From IMG/VR virus record IMGVR_UViG_2718218098_000004: a stretch of DNA of 37,506 bases; one strand, 5' to 3'. The stretch's first letter is position 1. The number at the start of each line of letters is the position of its first letter. Below, in pieces: positions 1 through 22,421 of the stretch. The notes under the pieces are model-generated. The model had not been told where the DNA came from. It saw only the letters and a program-made list of their open reading frames with translations, and searched no databases. Source of the stretch: a virus (taxonomy: Duplodnaviria > Heunggongvirae > Uroviricota > Caudoviricetes). The translations under genes and the position numbers were made by a program.

Positions 1-2157
1 TTACAGCGTTGGGAAGTTTGTTGATAATGGTACTATTGCATATTCAATTTTTGTTGGTGGCTGATTTGCCGCGCTGAATGTTGAAAGGGCCTCAAGCACA
101 ATATACCCACTTCCATTGTATCCGGCTTTAAAGCAACTTTGCAGGTTTGCAATGGAAGTATCTCCTGGGTTTAAACGCTGGTCAATAGGGGGTTTAAGGT
201 CAGTTGCGTCGGCTCTTGCTGTTGCGTCATGCGCACCAGAAGACATGATATATGTAGCATAATTATTTTTTACACCTCCAGTCACTTTTATGTGGAGAAG
301 GTAAAGAGTGCGATCAGATGTAGAACCAGTCAATATCTGTTTATCAAGAGTAATTCGTACCTTTGAGCCATCAGATAACACAGGTAAAGACTTGCTTAAC
401 ATTGCTACGCCATTAACAGTATTATCATAACCATTTCCGATATAGTTACCTGAACCTACAAAAGCTGAGTTCATTCGCCAGATATCTTCTGCCGTAAATA
501 ACCCTGACGTAATGAAGTTACCTGTCCATACGTTTCTGTTTCTTTCTGGTCTTGCATTAAGCACCATTCCAACACCCCCGGCCATGAAGTTGCCAGATAT
601 AACTGCTCCTGACATATCGGTAGTGTTGATGCATTGGAGTCTTAGGTCTTTGTTAACACCAGGATCAAGAACCATTTGCATGGTATTGCTGTTGATACTA
701 ATTCCGGCACACCACGTGCCATTAAAACCGTTGTTATTGTTGTTTAACGCCTGTGAAGCGATGAAATTAAATATCCTCTGTTCTGAAGGATTTGTAGCAC
801 CTTTATAGTAGAAAACATTTCCTGTAATACTAACAAGAGAAGTTCTAAGGAATATAGCGAAATCGTTAAGCGGGTTTTCCTCAAAATGATAGATATTGTT
901 AGAAATAACTGAACGCCCACCAAGACCGACTCTAGTACTACCATCAAATTGCAATGACATCATTTTATTAGCTGTATTGACAAATCTGTTGGAAGTTATG
1001 TTTATTTCAAGCCCCCCAGTAAATGTATCCATCTCACACGCAGACTCAGCATTCCTGTTCATAAGTAAATTTCCAGAGAAAGCGCCTCCTATCGTCGATC
1101 CTCCGATTTTTATAATATCTGCATTCGGACCGGTCTGCATAAAAACATCAAAGGTGTTATTCGTTATGTGGAACATTGACTTGCGAGGAGTTCCAATGTC
1201 GACGGATGCAGTCGTGTTGCCAAGAATCATCAGATATGGATATACCTCACCCTGTTCACCTGACATTCCTGCATCAGAGATATACTGATCTGTGTTGTCA
1301 TCAGTCTTGCAGTAGTTATTATCAACTGAAATATGTACGCTTGTTGGGTCCTGACAGTTAACCATGATGTAGCCAACACCGCAGTTAAAGCATTGCATAT
1401 CTTTTATCACCACGCGCGTTGGTAAATTCGCCAGCCCATCAGGGTAATCATTGAAAATTACCTGAGGACGCTGGGTGTGGTATGCATTTGCGGTGAACTT
1501 ACCGCCGATAATCTCTACTGATTTTGCGCCAAGCGGATGGAAAATATAATCAATGCCATTGAAGGTAAATTCTCCAGTAGAAGCATCGATAATGATGTCT
1601 CCTGGGATGGTGATGGGGGCTGTTACATCGTACACACCTGATGCTACAACTCTCGTTTTGTTTGCAACCGCATAATTTACAGCTGCCTGTAATTTTTCTG
1701 ACGCATTACTTCCGGGGAATACCTCGGGGACAACCCATTTGATGGCATCCTGTACCGTGCCATATGGCATAATCCCAACAAGACCAGCGCCGTCTTGATT
1801 AGAAAGCCTAATCTCAAATTGATCAGGGTCGTACTTCAGCACATTAGGGAAATAGAACTGCTGTGATCCATATGCATCGTACACAGACATAGAATGACCT
1901 TGCACAGTTACAAACTTGGCAATCTGTCCGTTATATACCGGATATCCAGCAGCATTAATGATGATTGGTTGCGAAACAGGAACGTGAGAGCCATCTTCGT
2001 TCTCTACATAAACCTGAATCTGGTTTTCTGGATTTACGGGGTCCGTGTCAATTTTACCGATATAAATTTTGCCATTGGCAACCGCTTTAAAAGAACGCGC
2101 CATAGTGAAAAGTTGCGAAGGCATCGATACGATCACATTGGCTGTAATGTCTGTCAT
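1..2157 (-). CDS. Tailspike protein (P22 gene 9 family): conserved N-terminal head-binding domain fused to a divergent receptor-binding body
   Basis: First ~110 aa (MTDITANV...YDPDQF) match the head-binding domain shared by P22/Sf6/HK620 tailspikes as recalled; remainder differs from the P22 and HK620 bodies; GGAG upstream of ATG at 2155-2157. Confidence 0.9.
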   Translation of the reverse strand: MTDITANVIVSMPSQLFTMARSFKAVANGKIYIGKIDTDPVNPENQIQVYVENEDGSHVPVSQPIIINAAGYPVYNGQIAKFVTVQGHSMSVYDAYGSQQFYFPNVLKYDPDQFEIRLSNQDGAGLVGIMPYGTVQDAIKWVVPEVFPGSNASEKLQAAVNYAVANKTRVVASGVYDVTAPITIPGDIIIDASTGEFTFNGIDYIFHPLGAKSVEIIGGKFTANAYHTQRPQVIFNDYPDGLANLPTRVVIKDMQCFNCGVGYIMVNCQDPTSVHISVDNNYCKTDDNTDQYISDAGMSGEQGEVYPYLMILGNTTASVDIGTPRKSMFHITNNTFDVFMQTGPNADIIKIGGSTIGGAFSGNLLMNRNAESACEMDTFTGGLEINITSNRFVNTANKMMSLQFDGSTRVGLGGRSVISNNIYHFEENPLNDFAIFLRTSLVSITGNVFYYKGATNPSEQRIFNFIASQALNNNNNGFNGTWCAGISINSNTMQMVLDPGVNKDLRLQCINTTDMSGAVISGNFMAGGVGMVLNARPERNRNVWTGNFITSGLFTAEDIWRMNSAFVGSGNYIGNGYDNTVNGVAMLSKSLPVLSDGSKVRITLDKQILTGSTSDRTLYLLHIKVTGGVKNNYATYIMSSGAHDATARADATDLKPPIDQRLNPGDTSIANLQSCFKAGYNGSGYIVLEALSTFSAANQPPTKIEYAIVPLSTNFPTL

Positions 2158-2216
2158 TTAATTTGCTCCAGATACAAGGAATCGCCGCAGCGTGGCTACG
2201 GTTGGTGTTTGTTGCA

Positions 2217-2229
2217 TACCGAAACGGTA
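2217..2229. promoter_or_regulatory. Inverted repeat TACCG-AAA-CGGTA in the mnt-tailspike intergenic region; candidate operator for the Mnt-like repressor
   Basis: 5-bp arms read directly; sits just upstream of a possible mnt promoter (TTGTTG-17-TACGAT, 2233-2261). Confidence 0.35.
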
Positions 2230-2292
2230 CGATTGTTGATTTGTACAGTAGGTTTTACGATGCCATTCCACCCAACTGGTGAGGCATCAAGG

Positions 2293-2553
2293 ATGTACAG
2301 CAAATACGACGAGGCGCAGTTTCACTTGAGACTTCCGCATGAACTTCACGCGAAAATTAAGCAGCGTGCGAAGATGAATAACAGGTCGCTGAACTCAGAG
2401 ATAATTGCAGCGATTGAAGAATCATTGGATAAACAAAGCTCTGCATCAGTTTACATTGACGATGCAGAGCGTATGGCAGAACAACAATCTGATATGGTTA
2501 AGAAAATTGTCTTTGATACGCTCAAGGAGCTATATAAAAAAGACAGCAGCTAA
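2293..2553 (+). CDS. mnt: Mnt-like ribbon-helix-helix repressor (86 aa)
   Basis: C-terminal segment NDAERMAEQQSDMVKKIVFDTLKELYKK closely resembles P22 Mnt; N-terminal beta-strand region FHLRLP is RHH-like but diverged; only the last 86 codons of track ORF 1894-2553 are used because the upstream part overlaps the tailspike gene. Confidence 0.75.
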   Translation: MYSKYDEAQFHLRLPHELHAKIKQRAKMNNRSLNSEIIAAIEESLDKQSSASVYIDDAERMAEQQSDMVKKIVFDTLKELYKKDSS

Positions 2554-2573
2554 CCATCAGTTACGGAGGATTT

Positions 2574-2651
2574 ATGCAAAGAGATATGCTGAACATTGCG
2601 TTCTACATATTTGGTTTTTGGACGTTCCTGGTGTTTGCGAAGCTATTCTGA
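2574..2651 (+). CDS. Candidate 25-aa hydrophobic peptide MQRDMLNIAFYIFGFWTFLVFAKLF directly downstream of mnt
   Basis: GGAGG 3 nt before ATG at 2574; one predicted transmembrane helix; overlaps the 3' end of the convergent ejection-protein gene by 9 nt; below the 60-aa track cutoff. Confidence 0.3.
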   Translation: MQRDMLNIAFYIFGFWTFLVFAKLF

Positions 2652-5036
2652 CAACGCATCAGACTTGGCACCCTGAGTAAGGGCGTTAATGGCCTTTTGC
2701 GCCTGCTGCATGGCTTTCTCAAACGCTGTTGATCCGCGTGGGGTGTTTGCCATTCGGAGCATTGCATTTCTGAATGGCTCGCTCTCATAGGCGCGAGTAA
2801 GAAGTCCGTAGCTTACTGCTGCGCCAGTTGTCGCCGGGTTCATTGCCGTCCCATATCCGATAATGAACGGGATGGTTTGCTGCCCTGTTGGTGTTGTTAC
2901 TGCCGCTTTTGCTGCCTGCTGAGTGGACTGAAGGTAGTTTTTCAATCCTTTCAGATAAGCGGCTTCCTGACCTTTAAATGTGATGCCAGTCTGGTTTTGC
3001 AGGATGTTAAGCTGTCGAAGGAACTGGTCAGGTGAACCACCTGATTTCTCTATCGCCTTTCCAATGATGCCATTGCGCATTTGCGCTCTTCCAACGCGAC
3101 CAACTGAGTTATACAGCGTCTTAATTTCCGATTTGTTCTTGCTGAATAGCATGTTGTTGACAACTTCCGGCGTCAGGTCGCCTTTCATGAGAACATTCTT
3201 CAGCCTGGTATTCTTTAGTTTCGCCGCTTCGTCAGCGTATACGGCATTGGCCTGCTGATATTTACGGAGAGTATCGTTGCCAAGATTCTGACCAATGGCA
3301 CCATTGATATCGTCTGTCATCGCCTTGTAAACGCGCTGAATGGCAGCATCGGAACGGTTTGGTAACACTGGTCGTTCACCCTTCACGTCCATTCTGAACT
3401 GGCTGCGCAGATCGCTTAATTGCTTCAAATCCAGATTTACCGGACCATCAGGACCAGCATTGCGAACAAGCTCATCACGATATGACTGAAGTTTTGAAAT
3501 AGTCTCGTTATCAGCAACCTTACCAAGCTTCTGCAGGTTAGATATTTCTGTATCAATCTGCTGAATTGCTCGCGCAGGCTGAATGTTTACTCCAGCCATA
3601 GCATTCTGAACCTGCTCCAGTCGATTACCGGCGGCACGACGAATTCCTGATGTTTTCGCTTTAAGGCTGTCAATAACAACAGATGGATCATACTCACCGA
3701 ATTTATCAGCAAATCTCTGCACCAACTGGCTTCTCGCTTCCTGTTGCGTTGCTCTCATCCCGCTTGTGCCAGCCAGGGGGATATTTTCCGCTGTCGTCTG
3801 CGCCATTTTCCCGACGCGGGAAGTAGGCTGTAACAGGTCTGTGGTGTGCAGAGGAACTCCTTCACGCTCTGCAAATCTGATAGCCTGCTGCGCTTCTGGC
3901 GCAATAGCACCACGAACGCCACGATAAGCAGCACCTAATCCACGTCCGGCAGCGTTAATAGCACCGCCAGCCAGCACACCAACGCCTAAATCGGTAGCGA
4001 GTGCTTCCGCATCATCTTTCATACTGTTTGCAGCAAGTGATCCAACTGCGTTTTCTGCGAGAAGGCGAGTTGCCCCCTGAGCAATTCGACCAGCAAGTGT
4101 TGGTGCCTGTGTTGCCGCTCTCTCAACGCCAGCAGGAGTGAGGTAAGGCAATGCTTCAGCAAATACCCTCCCCTCTGTCGTTTGTGGAGTCAGCGCGCCT
4201 TGCTGAAGGCCAAAGTCCTGCTCTAATCCCTGCGTTGTTACTCGTGGTGCTGGTTGATATGTACCATCGCCAATGCCGAGTTTACCGCCAGCCCAAGCCG
4301 CCGCGCTTGTTACAGCATCAGTGAGTTCAGCAGGTATGTTCGCTACGTTGATTCCTGCCTGTAGTAAGCCGCGCCCGGTTTCAGCAAGTCCATTACCAAG
4401 GTCAGACATTATTCCGCCTTGCTGCTGAACAGGTTTCGGTGCGACAGAACTTACGGGTTGAGGTGGCTGCTGACTGGCTGCCTGCTGCTCAATCTGAGCA
4501 AATGGATTATTTGGGTCTGACTGCACGCCTGATGCCGATACTTGTTCGGATGACTGTGCTTCCAGTTGTGCAAACGGGTTGTTAGGGTCTTGCTGAGGAT
4601 GTACCTTTGCAGAGGTGGCGCGCTGTTCGACTGTTGAGTCTGTCACCGGGTCACCCGCCCATTGAGCAAAGCGATCATCAACGTAACCGCGGCCTTCAGG
4701 TCCTGGCGTATATTCACCACGCTTTGCCTTCATAACGTTGCCGGGACCGTCGTGATAAGCCTGAAGAGCGTCACGCCAGTTACCAAACTGCTGGTACATC
4801 TTTGCCAGATAGCGCGCGCCAGCGTCAGCCTGATATTCGGGGTTTTGCATTTGCTCATCGGTATAACCCATATCACGCCATGTCCCAGGCATGACCTGAG
4901 TCAATCCTACAGCCCCGGCGGAGCTTACTGCGGCAGGGTTGTAAGAAGACTCCTTGGCACCCAGTGCAGTCATCAACCCTTCTGGCACACCGTAACGTGC
5001 GCCAGCCTGCTCTAACAAATCACGGTAATTAGCCAT
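2643..5036 (-). CDS. Ejection/DNA-transfer protein at the P22 gp16 position, with an N-terminal lytic transglycosylase (SLT) domain
   Basis: Position after the gp20-like gene; N-terminus carries SLT-like motifs (AKESSYNP, GLTQVMPGTW, AGARYL); internal duplicated DPNNPFAQ(L/I)E motif. Confidence 0.8.
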   Translation of the reverse strand: MANYRDLLEQAGARYGVPEGLMTALGAKESSYNPAAVSSAGAVGLTQVMPGTWRDMGYTDEQMQNPEYQADAGARYLAKMYQQFGNWRDALQAYHDGPGNVMKAKRGEYTPGPEGRGYVDDRFAQWAGDPVTDSTVEQRATSAKVHPQQDPNNPFAQLEAQSSEQVSASGVQSDPNNPFAQIEQQAASQQPPQPVSSVAPKPVQQQGGIMSDLGNGLAETGRGLLQAGINVANIPAELTDAVTSAAAWAGGKLGIGDGTYQPAPRVTTQGLEQDFGLQQGALTPQTTEGRVFAEALPYLTPAGVERAATQAPTLAGRIAQGATRLLAENAVGSLAANSMKDDAEALATDLGVGVLAGGAINAAGRGLGAAYRGVRGAIAPEAQQAIRFAEREGVPLHTTDLLQPTSRVGKMAQTTAENIPLAGTSGMRATQQEARSQLVQRFADKFGEYDPSVVIDSLKAKTSGIRRAAGNRLEQVQNAMAGVNIQPARAIQQIDTEISNLQKLGKVADNETISKLQSYRDELVRNAGPDGPVNLDLKQLSDLRSQFRMDVKGERPVLPNRSDAAIQRVYKAMTDDINGAIGQNLGNDTLRKYQQANAVYADEAAKLKNTRLKNVLMKGDLTPEVVNNMLFSKNKSEIKTLYNSVGRVGRAQMRNGIIGKAIEKSGGSPDQFLRQLNILQNQTGITFKGQEAAYLKGLKNYLQSTQQAAKAAVTTPTGQQTIPFIIGYGTAMNPATTGAAVSYGLLTRAYESEPFRNAMLRMANTPRGSTAFEKAMQQAQKAINALTQGAKSDALSE
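4490..4600. repeat. Imperfect tandem duplication inside the gp16-like gene (period about 72 nt)
   Basis: gcaaatggattatttgggtc at 4498-4517 and gcaaacgggttgttagggtc at 4570-4589, encoding the repeated DPNNPFAQ peptide. Confidence 0.5.
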
Positions 5037-10920: not shown

Positions 10921-12216
10921 TCACGCAGCCTGGTTAGGCAGACCAACGCCAATTGCCTCTGGTCGTACAGCACATGCTGAATACCACACAGCAATACGGC
11001 ACTTACCAGACAGAGTGTTGATATCACCCTGCGTTGCGAAGATGCCGTTAACACCAATACCAGGAATGCTGAAGGAAGACGTTTTCATGCCAGCAAACAG
11101 TTCATGGGTTACCGGGATCGGCTGAGACAGCAGACGGATTGAGTCATCAGCCCAGAACACGTTAGCGGTGGTTGTTGCCACGTTCAGAACGTTTACCGGA
11201 GTGGTATCAGCAAGAGATGTGTTTACATTAGCGTAAGCCTTCTCTTCTTTTGTCAGTGACGCGTCATCCAGTGCAATCGGTTTCGGCGTGATTTCGATAT
11301 GAGTACCATCGATCACACGGGTGATTGAGAAAGTCGCATCATCAGTCAGCACGTTCTTCGCCATCTGAGACAGGAATTTCACACCAGTGAAGCTGATTTT
11401 GTCGCCGCGCTTAAATCCGGTGGTGGAGGATAAGGTCACCGTTGCAACACGGTTGTCGACGTTCTCTTTGTTACCATCGGTATCAAGGGTGTATGCCTGC
11501 GGCTTAAACTTCTGCGCACCAGAAACAGTTACACCAGTAGCGGTTGACTTGGTAACTGCAGGAAGTTTCGGTGAGCGAAGAATTTCATCAAAGCCAGCAA
11601 TCTGACGCTGAATAGTACCGTTGCGATAAGCTTCTTCAGGAACGCGCCCAAAGATGTCACCATCTACCAGGTTACGGCCTGCTTTGCGGTAATCGTCAGG
11701 GTTCAGGAAGTAACTGATGCCCATGTCGCGGTTGAGTTCGCGGGAGAACATCAGGCGCTCTGCATCAGACACAAAATCCCAGCCAGACAGGCCAGTAGAT
11801 GGACCAATTGCGCGGGTATCGTGAACAACAAGTGAGCCCATTTCAGTTGCCTGTTTGGCAATCGCTGACTCAATGTTATTCGCCAGTTTTTTGGCAGATG
11901 CCTGGATGCGGCGACGGTAAGAACGCTCATCACGCAGGTCATCTGCACGAAGCTCGAAGAAATCGTTATCCGGATCGCCCATGTTGCATTTCACGGAGAG
12001 TTCCAGAATCCCGGTTGCGTTGCCAGTTAAATCCCAGCCAGTCTGGGTTGGCGCTTCCTGCTCAACAGGCATCCACACGGTGTTGCTTGAACGTTGCATG
12101 GATTCTGCCGGAGGGGTGTATTTTGTCACTTTGGACGCCATTGGCGTCAGGTTCTGGACGGTTTCGATGATTTCATCCAGAGCATACGTGACCAGTTGAC
12201 CTTCATTTAATGCCAT
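10921..12216 (-). CDS. Major capsid (coat) protein, P22 gp5 family
   Basis: 431 aa; near-collinear with P22 coat as recalled (MALNEGQ...[10 protein letters not shown]). Confidence 0.95.
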
Positions 12217-21412: not shown

Positions 21413-21699
21413 GGCTTAATCTTCCCCTCCTTCAGCAGTATCGCCTGCGTCCTGATCACGCCTTCAAGGTGGTAAAGTCTGGCGTCTTTGTTGTCGAGAT
21501 TATGGGTGCGTCGGTCGATTTCATCGTGACACGCGCTACAAGCCCATGCGCCGATCAGGTCGTCAGGCTTCATTCCCGTTCCGCAAATTCCAGCCATCCG
21601 GTAATGTGCCAGAACTGTAGTTTCAGGATTGCCATTGCATATGCCGTAAATACGTACCTGGCATTCTCTGCCGCGTGCTTCTTTGCGTAGGTTAGCCAT
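21409..21699 (-). CDS. YbcO-like protein (DUF1364), putative zinc-binding nuclease
   Basis: MANLRKEARGRECQVRI...CSACHDEIDRRTH resembles DLP12 YbcO as recalled. Confidence 0.65.
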   Translation of the reverse strand: MANLRKEARGRECQVRIYGICNGNPETTVLAHYRMAGICGTGMKPDDLIGAWACSACHDEIDRRTHNLDNKDARLYHLEGVIRTQAILLKEGKIKP

Positions 21700-22421
21700 T
21701 AAGCAGCCTCCCCTGTTACTTTCAGCATTCCGTTATCGAGCAGCTTTCTGGTCAGCCACTGTTGACCACGCCCGGTGATTTTTGTGGTGAACGATATCTG
21801 TATTCCGTGATTTGTGTTGACCGCTGTTTCTTTCACTGTGAAATAGCCGCGATCCATATATTCCTGCATTGGCACATTGCGCCGGGAACCTGAAGCAATA
21901 AGGATTTTGTGATCGCGCATCCACGCAAACAGTTTGTTTGGACCAATTCCAACAACCTTTGCAAAGTTTCCAATCAAAATTCCACTGGCCTCGCCAACGC
22001 GATCGGCAAACTCAACTTTAGGTGCGGCAATTGCGAGCTGGTTTTCCAGCTGCATTTTCTGCTCAGCAAGATCAGCAGCAAGGCGCAACGCTTCCGGTAG
22101 CGTTTTGGGGATATTAACCGCAGCTTCTTCAAGCTCTCGCCAACGGTCAACAAGGCGAGCGGTGAACTCTGGCGACAACTGGGCAACAACGACAATACTG
22201 TCTCGCTTACCTTGTTCGCCCTCGAAGACGTAATGCTCGTACTGAACATTGAACCCTAAGTTATTGATTCTTTCGGAAACCTCAATTTGAGGAAGCCGGA
22301 TAACACCATTTTTAGCCAGCGTTTCGATGGTACGTTTCACATTGTCATGACGCTTACCCACCAACTCAGCGATTTCAATGCTTGTCATTTTGATGACATT
22401 GCCATTTATTAACTCATTCAT
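21699..22421 (-). CDS. Rha-family regulatory protein with C-terminal KilAC/ANT antirepressor-like domain
   Basis: N-terminal MTSIEIAELVGKRHDNVKRTIETL (Rha-like HTH) and C-terminal GNFAKVVGIGPNKLFAWMRDHKIL (KilAC-like). Confidence 0.7.
   Translation of the reverse strand: MNELINGNVIKMTSIEIAELVGKRHDNVKRTIETLAKNGVIRLPQIEVSERINNLGFNVQYEHYVFEGEQGKRDSIVVVAQLSPEFTARLVDRWRELEEAAVNIPKTLPEALRLAADLAEQKMQLENQLAIAAPKVEFADRVGEASGILIGNFAKVVGIGPNKLFAWMRDHKILIASGSRRNVPMQEYMDRGYFTVKETAVNTNHGIQISFTTKITGRGQQWLTRKLLDNGMLKVTGEAA

Follow-up and report, generated by a model that had tools for sequence, protein, structure and literature searches.

A Mnt module and a conserved, unannotated membrane peptide gene beside gene 16 of a P22-like prophage, with a proposed role in superinfection exclusion

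Organization of the interval between the tailspike gene and gene 16

We analyzed a 37,506-nucleotide Caudoviricetes sequence (IMG/VR record IMGVR_UViG_2718218098_000004), which we refer to as the window, and focused on positions 2158-2651, where the tailspike gene gives way to the gene for a DNA-ejection protein. All the elements that a sequence-only reading had described in this interval were found where it placed them, and we recognize the following features in and around it.

1-2157, minus strand: tailspike gene, 718 aa (ORF list; Pfam Head_binding, E 4.5e-66; PGAP annotation of the identical M9 prophage)
2158-2213, no strand: tailspike-proximal leader module, with the tailspike ribosome-binding site (megablast; alignment)
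2215-2231, no strand: candidate Mnt operator, CATACCGAAACGGTACG (conserved island; alignment with P22 Omnt; covariation with the beta-strand)
2233-2261, plus strand: candidate Pmnt promoter, -35 TTGTTG at 2233-2238, 17-nt spacer, -10 TACGAT at 2256-2261 (comparative alignment)
2239-2266, minus strand: weak candidate Pant-like promoter toward the tailspike gene (read from the sequence; analogy to P22 Pant/Omnt)
2293-2553, plus strand: mnt homologue, 86 aa (Pfam; PHROG 795; P22 Mnt alignment; PGAP start in M9; start-codon test)
2565-2569, plus strand: peptide ribosome-binding site GGAGG, 4 nt before the ATG (sequence)
2574-2651, plus strand: unannotated gene for a predicted single-pass membrane peptide of 25 aa (conservation, pN/pS, homology boundary, hydrophobicity)
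2643-5036, minus strand: gp16-like DNA-ejection protein, 797 aa (Pfam SLT; BLASTP; MAFFT with BTP1 and P22 gp16)

The N-terminal domain of the tailspike is of the P22 head-binding type, and mnt is its divergent neighbour. Between them, the leader module is common to many P22-like prophages, with or without mnt; megablast pieces covering query positions 1-45 or 1-56 recur in hundreds of E. coli genomes. On the other side, the gp16-like protein has an SLT lytic transglycosylase domain at residues 1-207, as Sf101 does, and its residues 208-797 share 97% identity with Sf6 gp13 (BLASTP). A tblastn search with P22 proteins found no match to arc, ant, sieA or orf59a in the window, and the PGAP annotation of the identical prophage of E. 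coli M9 agrees; the earlier observation that arc and ant are absent is thereby borne out.

This arrangement had first been read as a special replacement of the P22 locus, a claim that did not hold, as Mnt-only 'ant morons' have been described in ST64T, ST104 and L (Villafane 2008, PMC2629481; Zaworski 2020, PMC8022706). Since it has already been described for ST64T and L, the Mnt-only region is ordinary, and the new part is the peptide; neither the peptide nor the operator classes presented below are described in those two papers. We explain the interval best as a minimal 'ant moron', carried by a P22-like E. coli prophage and composed of two independent modules, Mnt and the peptide gene. In relatives, the slot 3′ of mnt is repeatedly occupied by genes for envelope proteins, namely lipoproteins and SieA. 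A 161-aa ORF found between mnt and the peptide gene in some relatives was considered as a SieA homologue and rejected; it encodes a lipoprotein of PHROG 6067.

A Mnt homologue with its own recognition strand and a candidate operator

The mnt product has both domains expected of a Mnt protein: an N-terminal ribbon-helix-helix (Pfam Arc PF03869, E 8.3e-15, 54.8 bits against a cut-off of 20.4) and a C-terminal tetramerisation domain (Pfam Repressor_Mnt PF11423, E 3.3e-14, residues 57-82). It is 48% identical to P22 Mnt, with nearly identical C-termini, whereas the recognition strand reads AQFHLRLP rather than the PHFNFRMP of P22 Mnt. These results uphold the initial description of a Mnt-like protein with a diverged recognition strand, and the homologue is best explained as a distinct specificity class, as judged from its recognition strand. 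We place its start at 2293, behind a GAGG ribosome-binding site at 2281-2284. The in-frame ATG at 2260, annotated as the mnt start in Sf101, was rejected because the upstream ATG is out of frame in Serratia and followed by a stop in Buttiauxella; it also falls within the -10 of candidate Pmnt. These comparisons, and a Citrobacter case, come from a search of genome contigs with Mnt that yielded five loci.

Upstream of mnt lies a palindrome, TACCGAAACGGTA, at 2217-2229, with half-site centres 11 bp apart, which the sequence-only reading had suggested could be an operator. Taken alone this palindrome is at chance level, given that TACC-N5-GGTA is expected 0.57 times per shuffled window; it is meaningful because it is conserved, and conserved in position. 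It forms an island, CATACC-N-AAA-Y-GGTAC, between variable flanks and is kept in Escherichia, Buttiauxella and Serratia; the Buttiauxella copy is perfect (GTACCAAAATGGTAC), and the Citrobacter copy is degenerate and lies next to an mnt pseudogene. Moreover, the 17-bp site containing it aligns column for column with P22 Omnt. Across phages the operator covaries with the recognition strand: PHFNFRMP is found with GGTCCACCGTGGACC, PQFNLRLP with AGACCACGGTGGTCT and AQFHLRLP with ATACCGAAAYGGTAC. The comparison thus gives three putative natural pairs of recognition strand and operator for Mnt, a classic ribbon-helix-helix model protein. We conclude that the palindrome is very probably the core of the Mnt operator, a 17-bp site that is the positional orthologue of P22 Omnt, and the earlier suggestion gains support from conservation, alignment and covariation alike. 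The motif was not found in the arc-ant promoters of JEP4 and NCCP13717. A second Mnt target in the window was considered and rejected, as the 17-mer occurs once and the other TACC-N5-GGTA copy, at 11194, is at chance level.

The candidate operator abuts the -35 of candidate Pmnt. The pattern TTGnnn-17-TAnnAT is kept in position in most Mnt types examined (the spacer is 15 nt in the L007 type) and is also that of the annotated P22 Pmnt, TTGAGA-17-TATCAT; Pmnt fell below the threshold of a generic sigma-70 promoter scan. On the opposite strand, a Pant-like promoter can be read with -35 ATGGCA (reverse complement of 2261-2266) and -10 ACAAAT (reverse complement of 2239-2244), separated by a 16-nt spacer that includes TGn; its predicted start, near 2231, would fall within the candidate operator. 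It matches 8 of 12 positions and is absent from the scan output. Consensus scans gave nothing useful for Pmnt, the Pant-like promoter or the Sf6-type context, and our promoter calls therefore rest on comparative alignment.

By analogy with P22, Mnt would bind the 17-bp operator at 2215-2231 and so act beside the -35 of its own promoter. Because arc and ant are missing, two jobs would remain for it: regulating the divergent promoter region beside the tailspike gene, and setting lysogen-phase transcription for any gene downstream of mnt. The sequence-only reading had proposed control of either tailspike-proximal transcription or the downstream peptide. The first is weakly supported, by the partial Pant-like match; the second fares better, in that Pmnt should drive the peptide gene.

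A conserved peptide gene downstream of mnt

The second ORF of the mnt operon encodes the 25-aa peptide MQRDMLNIAFYIFGFWTFLVFAKLF. It starts 20 nt past the mnt stop codon with no terminator between, and it runs tail-to-tail into the gp16-like gene, with whose end it shares its final 9 nt. In the predicted fold, the ribosome-binding site and AUG are mostly unpaired. A single helix is predicted, and the 19-residue Kyte-Doolittle mean (1.66, with a range of 1.66-1.84) indicates a hydrophobic stretch long enough for a membrane helix; the hydrophobic peptide with a strong Shine-Dalgarno sequence that had been noticed directly after mnt is thus confirmed as a feature of the locus. The ORF is never predicted by gene callers and is annotated nowhere. 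Searches of Pfam, PHROGs, NCBIfam and PADLOC returned no family match, an exact look-up among 15 billion proteins returned no match, and a homology search with a 40-aa read-through variant matched one 52-aa protein.

Despite this absence from annotations, the peptide gene is widespread. About 190 viral contigs and 38 phage genomes carry it intact, and strain W is among the at least 81 complete E. coli genomes that have it; homologues occur in ST64T, L, BTP1 and VSe13. To compare the interval across relatives, we used 131 loci gathered by an anchor outside the peptide ORF, and an intact ORF in register was present in 126 of them, contrary to the possibility, raised at the outset, that it would not be conserved. 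The family is 23-25 aa long and shares the N-terminal motif M-x-R-D-x-L-N-x-x-F-x-I-F-G. A Salmonella subfamily is intact at all 65 of its loci, with TATAAT and GGAGG conserved and the spacer between them variable.

Several lines of evidence indicate that it is the protein that has been kept. The ORF has a pN/pS of 0.29, a value as low as which was obtained in 2 of 1000 permutations (p ~0.002), which is evidence of protein-level purifying selection. There are zero stop codons among its 52 distinct nucleotide versions, although this is not significant alone (239 of 1000 permutations were also stop-free), and third-position enrichment is mild (14, 9 and 18 variable sites at codon positions one to three). 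Between the window and BTP1 peptides, 9 of the 14 N-terminal residues are identical though synonymous sites are saturated. Finally, the gene occurs in at least four upstream contexts, each supplying its own ribosome-binding site, and in four of them homology begins 1-2 nt before the ATG. The peptide gene is invariably tail-to-tail with a gene 16 of the Sf6/L/BTP1 type; physical adjacency alone could account for this linkage.

An alternative is that the ORF is untranslated and that these 70 bp are kept as a nucleic-acid element, for example a recombination boundary sequence or the 3′ end of gene 16 mRNA. In favour of this, the conserved stretch is short and lies beside gene 16 in every case, lambdoid phages carry conserved boundary sequences (one is annotated in CUS-3), and both the silence of gene callers and the non-significant lack of stop codons are compatible with it. 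Against it stand the pN/pS value, the amino acids kept across subfamilies despite saturated synonymous change, and a ribosome-binding site and ATG that persist in independent contexts, where the edge of homology coincides with the ATG. An RNA element in place of the peptide was also rejected on structural grounds: folding of 2545-2665 gave no significant structure (z-scores of -0.28 and +0.12 for the two strands), and no terminator was found. We regard the nucleic-acid element as improbable. The evidence supports the peptide ORF as a real gene that Mnt's promoter should drive in the window, and as the second gene of the mnt operon it would therefore be expressed by the prophage.

Superinfection exclusion at the corresponding locus of BTP1

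The Salmonella phage homologue in BTP1 lies in a region with a published phenotype. A cloned 786-nt BTP1 fragment gives total immunity to BTP1 infection and leaves induction of the resident prophage unaffected; the locus, STnc6030, is transcribed in lysogens and was published as a non-coding antisense RNA that blocks superinfection, with escape mutations in gp16 (Owen et al. 2020, PMC7067206). The ORF search in that study was limited to more than 60 aa (PMC7067206). We mapped its primers to L175 2095-2880, a segment that includes the whole peptide ORF with its TATAAT and ribosome-binding site, and the transcripts behind the major Northern bands (~500 nt) would stop shortly past the peptide stop codon. 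As the BTP1 counterpart lies within the published antisense transcript, the peptide may be the real blocking agent.

The four BTP1 escape SNPs are all non-synonymous and fall within 13 codons, gp16 residues 583-595. This segment aligns with the part of P22 gp16 that bears the SieA-escape change P546S (G532W lies 10 residues upstream), and its homologue in the gp16-like protein of the window is IPFIIGYGTAMNPATT (MAFFT). The probable role of the peptide is superinfection exclusion: like a miniature SieA that shares no homology with it, the peptide would sit in the inner membrane and keep related incoming phages from delivering their DNA by way of gp16. Its probable target is the gp16-like protein, and the window copy would be a prophage-expressed mini exclusion protein driven by Pmnt. 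Only the N-terminal 14 residues are well shared between the window and BTP1 peptides, and the function of the two may therefore differ.

The main competing explanation is that BTP1 exclusion is exerted by antisense RNA as published, and that the small ORF, as a gene in its own right, plays some unrelated part in the membrane, for example modulating a host protein, or does nothing of importance. Phage-specific exclusion by a fragment antisense to gene 16 and the tailspike gene fits this model, as does the escape of P22, which lacks nucleotide similarity and is not excluded by the BTP1 fragment (PMC7067206); the escape SNPs do fall in a region complementary to the cloned RNA. An RNA perfectly complementary over more than 300 nt should nevertheless keep its antisense action when one base is mismatched, whereas all four SNPs alter the gp16 protein, clustered in the 13 codons homologous to the SieA-escape segment. 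An RNA acting against late mRNA should also harm the induced resident prophage, and no harm was seen. The major ~500-nt transcripts would stop short of the 'seed' region, situated at a distance of 649-686 nt from the 5′ end, and protein-level selection on the ORF likewise argues against an antisense-only reading. We consider the published mechanism an unlikely, though serious, explanation, and infer that exclusion is exerted by the peptide and not by the RNA, and that the E. coli version would do the same.

A second alternative is that the peptide resembles a type I toxin, held in check by late-operon transcripts antisense to it or by a small RNA that has escaped notice, and serves abortive infection or prophage maintenance. 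A hydrophobic peptide of 23-25 aa encoded convergently with, and overlapping, an opposite-strand gene would suit such a role, and the BTP1 region is dense in sense and antisense transcription. On the other hand, we found neither a dedicated antisense small-RNA promoter nor a structured 5′ UTR, the only antisense being the late operon message; the BTP1 transcript is high in healthy lysogens and constitutive plasmid expression is tolerated (PMC7067206), which argues against strong toxicity. Since induction of the resident prophage is unaffected, a block to entry is favoured over cell killing, and we assign the type I reading little probability.

The sequence-only reading had also likened the locus to a toxin-antitoxin or exclusion module. 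Its exclusion half is supported, indirectly, by the STnc6030 data; the co-occurrence data contradict the other half, in which Mnt would neutralise or tightly repress a toxic membrane peptide. Such an addiction pair is very improbable: a small hydrophobic ORF 20 nt downstream of a ribbon-helix-helix gene has a pair-like order, and Mnt gives weak, sub-threshold matches to antitoxin-type ribbon-helix-helix models (HicB, FitA, RelB-like), but the pairing is rejected because the peptide occurs both with and without mnt. Window-type mnt is missing within 1.5 kb of at least 37 of the 128 peptide loci; the peptide is intact at 27 Sf6-type loci and at least 12 lipoprotein-context loci, none of those checked having a window-type mnt within 1.5 kb, and Sf6 and BTP1 are examples. 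Conversely, window-type mnt occurs without the peptide in Sf101, JEP4 and L016, a terminator and an opposite-strand gene separate the two in L and ST64T, and the peptide lies outside the toxin families recognised by Pfam, PHROGs, NCBIfam and PADLOC. The mnt and peptide genes are independent modules.

Taking together the gene anatomy, conservation, ORF selection, operator covariation and module independence observed here, the best explanation of the interval as a whole, which we think probable, is a Mnt module joined to a prophage-expressed peptide that causes superinfection exclusion. More tentatively, at somewhat under an even chance, we propose that a peptide of 23-25 aa, and not antisense RNA, is the effector of STnc6030, and that its family, including the E. 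coli, Sf6, L and ST64T copies, would be the smallest known phage exclusion protein: a single-helix inner-membrane protein that disables incoming gp16 and is genetically tethered to the adjacent gp16 allele.

Implications

If this is correct, a published phage-defence mechanism, listed as antisense RNA in a 2025 review, may be mis-assigned. A conserved micro-protein would explain two puzzles of STnc6030, the unaffected resident prophage and the single non-synonymous escape changes in gp16. Sf6, L, ST64T and BTP1, together with the at least 81 complete E. coli genomes that include strain W, would gain an unannotated gene; in Sf6, described as lacking an 'ant moron', the gap would not be empty. 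A 25-residue peptide that targets an ejection protein would, if true, also be a tractable tool for studying the passage of short-tailed phage DNA across the inner membrane.

Comparison with known systems

Like immI of P22, the window has a two-domain Mnt (Arc and Repressor_Mnt) whose gene occupies the same place and is transcribed away from the tailspike gene, and a 17-bp symmetric site that aligns with the P22 one and directly adjoins the -35 of a TTGnnn-17-TAnnAT promoter. It differs from P22 in pairing AQFHLRLP with ATACCGAAAYGGTAC where P22 pairs PHFNFRMP with GGTCCACCGTGGACC, and in the gene downstream of mnt, which encodes a membrane peptide rather than orf59a. Because the window lacks arc, ant and sar, the classical Mnt target is missing. 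ST64T, ST104 and L share with the window a divergent tailspike gene and mnt that flank an operator-like palindrome, the lack of arc and ant, and a peptide homologue next to gene 16. Their Mnt proteins belong to another specificity class, however, and in L and ST64T a terminator and orf62 separate mnt from a peptide gene with its own TATAAT, whereas in the window the peptide gene is fused into the mnt operon.

STnc6030 of BTP1 has the same position between gene 16 and the tailspike gene, on the opposite strand, and contains a small ORF homologue (23 aa) with a ribosome-binding site, which overlaps gene 16 tail-to-tail in the same way; homology between the gene 16 products extends through the escape segment. 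BTP1 lacks mnt, its peptide differs in the C-terminal half and in length (23 against 25 aa in the window), and its long transcript arises from a promoter ~310 nt inside the tailspike gene. That promoter, TTGAAT-17-TTCAAT in BTP1 and ST64T, is not conserved in the window (TCTCAA...TTCAGC), where Pmnt is the likely driver.

Type I toxins and bacterial small membrane proteins resemble the peptide in having fewer than 30 aa, a single hydrophobic helix and a short polar head, and in being missed by automated annotation. Unlike type I toxins, the peptide has no dedicated antisense small RNA that we could find, and no toxicity is evident from the BTP1 over-expression data; unlike both groups, its gene is strictly linked to a phage ejection-protein gene.

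A further parallel is SieA of P22 (Leavitt et al. 2024, PMC10883804). No sequence similarity was detected: tblastn with P22 SieA gave no significant match in the window, the motif FxRYPxEAxxFNK is absent, and none of the PHROG families matches the peptide, not even the SieA family phrog_7745, which P22 SieA does match. SieA is also far larger: it has 162-164 aa and is predicted to form three helices, whereas the peptide has 25 aa and a single predicted helix. Escape from SieA requires changes in gp20 as well. Like the window peptide, however, SieA is encoded between gene 16 and gene 9. It is expressed by the prophage, and for the peptide lysogen expression is known from the region of the BTP1 homologue (PMC7067206); SieA is a membrane protein, and the window peptide is a predicted membrane peptide. 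In gp16, changes that allow escape from SieA fall in the same aligned segment as those that allow escape from the BTP1 locus.

A P22-like prophage interval with mnt but no arc or ant

The window makes up one entire P22-like prophage (Lederbergvirus) with 100% identity to a prophage of E. coli M9, in which the copy (record L017, 917000-960500) is integrated between torS and torT. In the M9 record the annotated torS and the DUF2560 gene of the prophage each have an internal stop, and an acyltransferase gene lies past the tailspike, outside the window. The late operon occupies the minus strand in the window's orientation, and the 485 bp that separate the tailspike from the gp16-like gene are the counterpart of the "ant moron", a variable region in P22-like phages (Villafane 2008, PMC2629481).

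Features of the interval and its flanks
1-2157, minus strand: tailspike
2217-2229: palindrome TACCGAAACGGTA
2293-2553, plus strand: mnt homologue ORF, 86 aa (Pfam Arc and Repressor_Mnt)
2574-2651, plus strand: 25-aa ORF, 20 nt after mnt, with GGAGG 4 nt ahead of the ATG
2643-5036, minus strand: gp16-like ejection gene

All elements picked out by the sequence-only reading (the Mnt-like RHH protein, the 25-aa ORF with its Shine-Dalgarno sequence, the palindrome and the missing arc and ant) are confirmed. The Mnt homologue is 48% identical to P22 Mnt; tblastn of P22 Arc, Ant, SieA and Orf59a against the window returned nothing significant, and the PGAP annotation contains no second Arc-family gene. 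The sole antirepressor-like gene, situated in the nin region (~21699-22421), encodes a KilAC-domain protein with weak similarity to the P22 Ant C-terminus (E 0.095), and no Mnt site was found near it. The suggested special replacement of the P22 locus has precedents: Mnt-only regions were already known from ST64T, ST104 and L (PMC2629481; PMC8022706); the authors of the phage L study suggested that their mnt is a remnant or the bearer of a new function. Conservation of Mnt together with its putative site across genera argues for function.

A putative Mnt operator

A bare 5+3+5 palindrome is at chance level, TACC-N5-GGTA being expected 0.57 times per shuffled window; as a candidate site, the palindrome becomes convincing through comparison across relatives. 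Megablast indicated that 2212-2561 travels as a single module containing both palindrome and mnt, and CATACC-N-AAA-Y-GGTAC is invariant in nine relatives in which the left flank is swapped out. Among 80 viral loci with the window's Mnt type, 67 have CATACCGAAATGGTACT, and the perfectly symmetric site of the window is a minority form (2/80). The Buttiauxella site is a perfect GTACCAAAATGGTAC, the Serratia site ATACCTAAACGGTAC; at a Citrobacter locus with an mnt pseudogene, the right arm has decayed. When the 90 nt upstream of mnt were aligned for nine phages, the window site coincided in its columns with Omnt as annotated in P22. Directly after the site, most types examined have TTGnnn-17 nt-TAnnAT (15 nt in the type of relative L007), the P22 instance of which is the annotated Pmnt. 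The palindrome also varies together with the Mnt recognition strand in the three classes compared.

Mnt recognition strands and their palindromes
PHFNFRMP (P22, epsilon34): GGTCCACCGTGGACC
PQFNLRLP (ST64T, SE1, Gally): AGACCACGGTGGTCT
AQFHLRLP (window, Buttiauxella, Serratia): ATACCGAAAYGGTAC

Because the palindrome follows the recognition strand, and N-terminal residues set the specificity of Arc and Mnt (Knight and Sauer 1989, as cited in PMC3413123), we take 2215-2231 as the putative Mnt operator, in agreement with the earlier proposal. TTGTTG (2233-2238), a 17-nt spacer and TACGAT (2256-2261) would then form a candidate Pmnt. The in-frame ATG that the Sf101 annotation uses, at 2260 in the window, sits within the -10 hexamer of this promoter; it was rejected as the mnt start, since its counterpart is out of frame in Serratia and meets a stop codon in Buttiauxella. 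The Sf101 mnt CDS (L002 4047-4340) has a false 11-aa N-terminal extension beginning inside the Pmnt -10. RefSeq (Sf101, P22, ST64T, SE1) and PHROG 795 name Mnt "partition protein ATPase", a mislabel.

It had also been suggested that Mnt may steer tailspike-proximal transcription. On the opposite strand, where P22 has Pant, a Pant-like promoter can be read (ATGGCA, a 16-nt spacer with TGn, ACAAAT) that would start within the operator, but it matches only 8/12 positions and was not reported by the promoter scan. Mnt may control transcription running into the tailspike, but support for this is weak.

In CUS-3 (L173 311-568, 592-840), two mnt-like genes stand in tandem, of which the second has a P22-type recognition strand and no P22-type operator directly upstream. 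In JEP4 (L013 3418-5337) and a further relative (L015 3405-5327), an operon of arc, a Rha/P22AR antirepressor and KilA converges on an mnt of the window's type; because its promoter is distant and without a TACC-N5-GGTA site, this Mnt class seems not to regulate it.

An unannotated gene for a predicted membrane peptide

By Megablast, 2573-2720 is a separate module that occurs in Sf6 and many mnt-less prophages; in the first ten loci inspected the ORF was intact, with homology starting 1-2 nt ahead of the ATG. To obtain an unbiased set, loci were collected through an anchor in gene 16 coding sequence that does not overlap the ORF (n=131). The 25-codon ORF was intact and in register in 126; of the other five, one was shifted by an indel elsewhere, two had the stop changed to Arg and two held unrelated DNA. 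Across 52 distinct nucleotide versions, pS was 0.24 and pN 0.07 in the ORF frame, and a ratio as low as the observed 0.29 arose in 2/1000 permutations of the observed substitutions to random columns. Stop codons were absent from the ORF frame and present in other frames, although this absence alone is not significant (239/1000 permutations). A suitably spaced ribosome-binding site is supplied by each of four different upstream contexts.

Ribosome-binding sites by upstream context
After mnt: GGAGG
After the 161-aa lipoprotein gene: AAGG
Sf6-type, without mnt: GAGG or GAGA
One other context: GGAGG

The hydrophobic stretch of the peptide qualifies as a membrane helix, and RNA folds on both strands were no better than shuffled controls. 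Judged by conservation, substitution pattern and ribosome-binding sites, the 25-aa ORF, a candidate in the sequence-only reading, is a real gene. It is missing from Pfam, PHROGs, NCBIfam, PADLOC and a 15-billion-protein collection, and is unannotated in 38 phage records and, of the 81 E. coli genomes with the ORF, in every listed record; the one called protein is a 52-aa read-through variant, and we found no published mention.

The window copy has Trp16 (TGG), nearly all relatives Cys16 (TGC), and other variants Tyr or Phe. In four degraded prophages (L005, L009, L010, L011), IS1 has truncated the tailspike and gene 16 is frameshifted or split, yet the ORF is retained intact, which is anecdotal given the small mutational target. 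The Sf6 intergenic region (L003 2907-3002) contains the inverted repeat CCGGACA-N10-TGTCCGG and the direct repeat TCCGGAC; it has no consensus -35 for the peptide gene.

Independence of the peptide from mnt

An RHH regulator beside a small membrane peptide had suggested a toxin-antitoxin pair. Among 128 peptide loci, the ORF lies directly after mnt in 69 and after a lipoprotein gene in 28, with 27 Sf6-type loci and 4 others; at least 37/128 have no window-type mnt within 1.5 kb, and Sf101, JEP4 and L016 have window-type mnt without the peptide. As the two genes occur apart in both directions, this pairing was rejected.

The slot after mnt is often filled by envelope proteins, namely SieA in P22 and lipoproteins in E. 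coli prophages, Buttiauxella, Proteus phage Brookers and phage Gally. One of these is a 161-aa lipoprotein with an LLVGC lipobox (PHROG 6067), to which the Buttiauxella, Brookers and Gally lipoproteins are unrelated. The post-mnt lipoproteins are probably further envelope or exclusion morons.

Lipoprotein genes downstream of mnt in relatives' records
L007: 3417-3902
L016: 3417-3902
L167: 1964-2479 and 1440-1859
L164: just after mnt
L171: 861-1337

Homologues in Salmonella phages and the BTP1 exclusion locus

Salmonella phage VSe13 encodes a divergent 25-aa homologue; ST64T, L and ST104 share a 23-aa subfamily (MNRDLLNFAFLIFGIVVGRLLFA), and BTP1 encodes MERDLLNFVFLIFGLVVGKLLFA, all tail-to-tail with gene 16. 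The 23-aa subfamily occurs in 29 phage records and is intact in 65/65 viral contigs found, most of which have a perfect TATAAT ~22 nt upstream of the ATG and then a GGAGG-type site, separated by a spacer of variable sequence; Sf6 has TATGAT at this place, 22 nt ahead of the ATG. Between window and BTP1, 9/14 residues are identical (M-x-R-D-x-L-N-x-x-F-x-I-F-G) and synonymous sites in codons 2-14 are saturated (7.5 of 7.5); the C-terminal halves of the two subfamilies differ. The careful phage L annotation lists only mnt and orf62 in the region, and Sf6 is said in the literature to be without an "ant moron".

[quoted passage not shown] 2020, PMC7067206). Coding potential was excluded in that study by considering only ORFs >60 aa, and a 2025 review continues to class STnc6030 as antisense RNA. 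Because the published cloning primers (supplement) map to 2095-2880 of the BTP1 record (L175), the clone contains the entire 23-aa ORF (2501-2572) with TATAAT and GGAGG; it is the clone's only ATG-initiated reading frame and has a strong ribosome-binding site. The major ~500-nt Northern species would end near 2595, just beyond the ORF stop codon, and no major transcript is long enough to extend to the "seed". The four escape SNPs (D23580 404,041-404,078; L175 2744-2781) lie 172-209 nt beyond the ORF and alter gp16 residues 583-595, ILGIGTVTNPALV. Single, clustered, non-synonymous escapes, an unaffected induced prophage and short transcripts are hard to fit to the antisense model; all three would be expected if a membrane protein blocked the DNA entry that depends on gp16.

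A membrane peptide of this kind would be placed under Mnt in the window. The distant STnc6030 promoter has no conserved counterpart there; since the ORF follows mnt by 20 nt with no terminator between them, the candidate Pmnt should express it in the lysogen. We propose that Mnt here is mainly the regulator and promoter, in the lysogen, of a putative exclusion peptide. The window's gp16-like protein is a chimera: residues 1-207 are identical to the N-terminus of Sf101 gp13 and form an SLT lytic transglycosylase domain, and residues 208-797 (590 residues) have 97% identity to Sf6 gp13. Its homology to BTP1 gp16 extends through the escape segment. In a MAFFT alignment, that BTP1 segment pairs with the P22 gp16 segment bearing P546S, with G532W 10 residues upstream; P546S and G532W are the pair of gp16 substitutions contributing to P22 escape from SieA, an inner-membrane protein (Leavitt 2024, PMC10883804).
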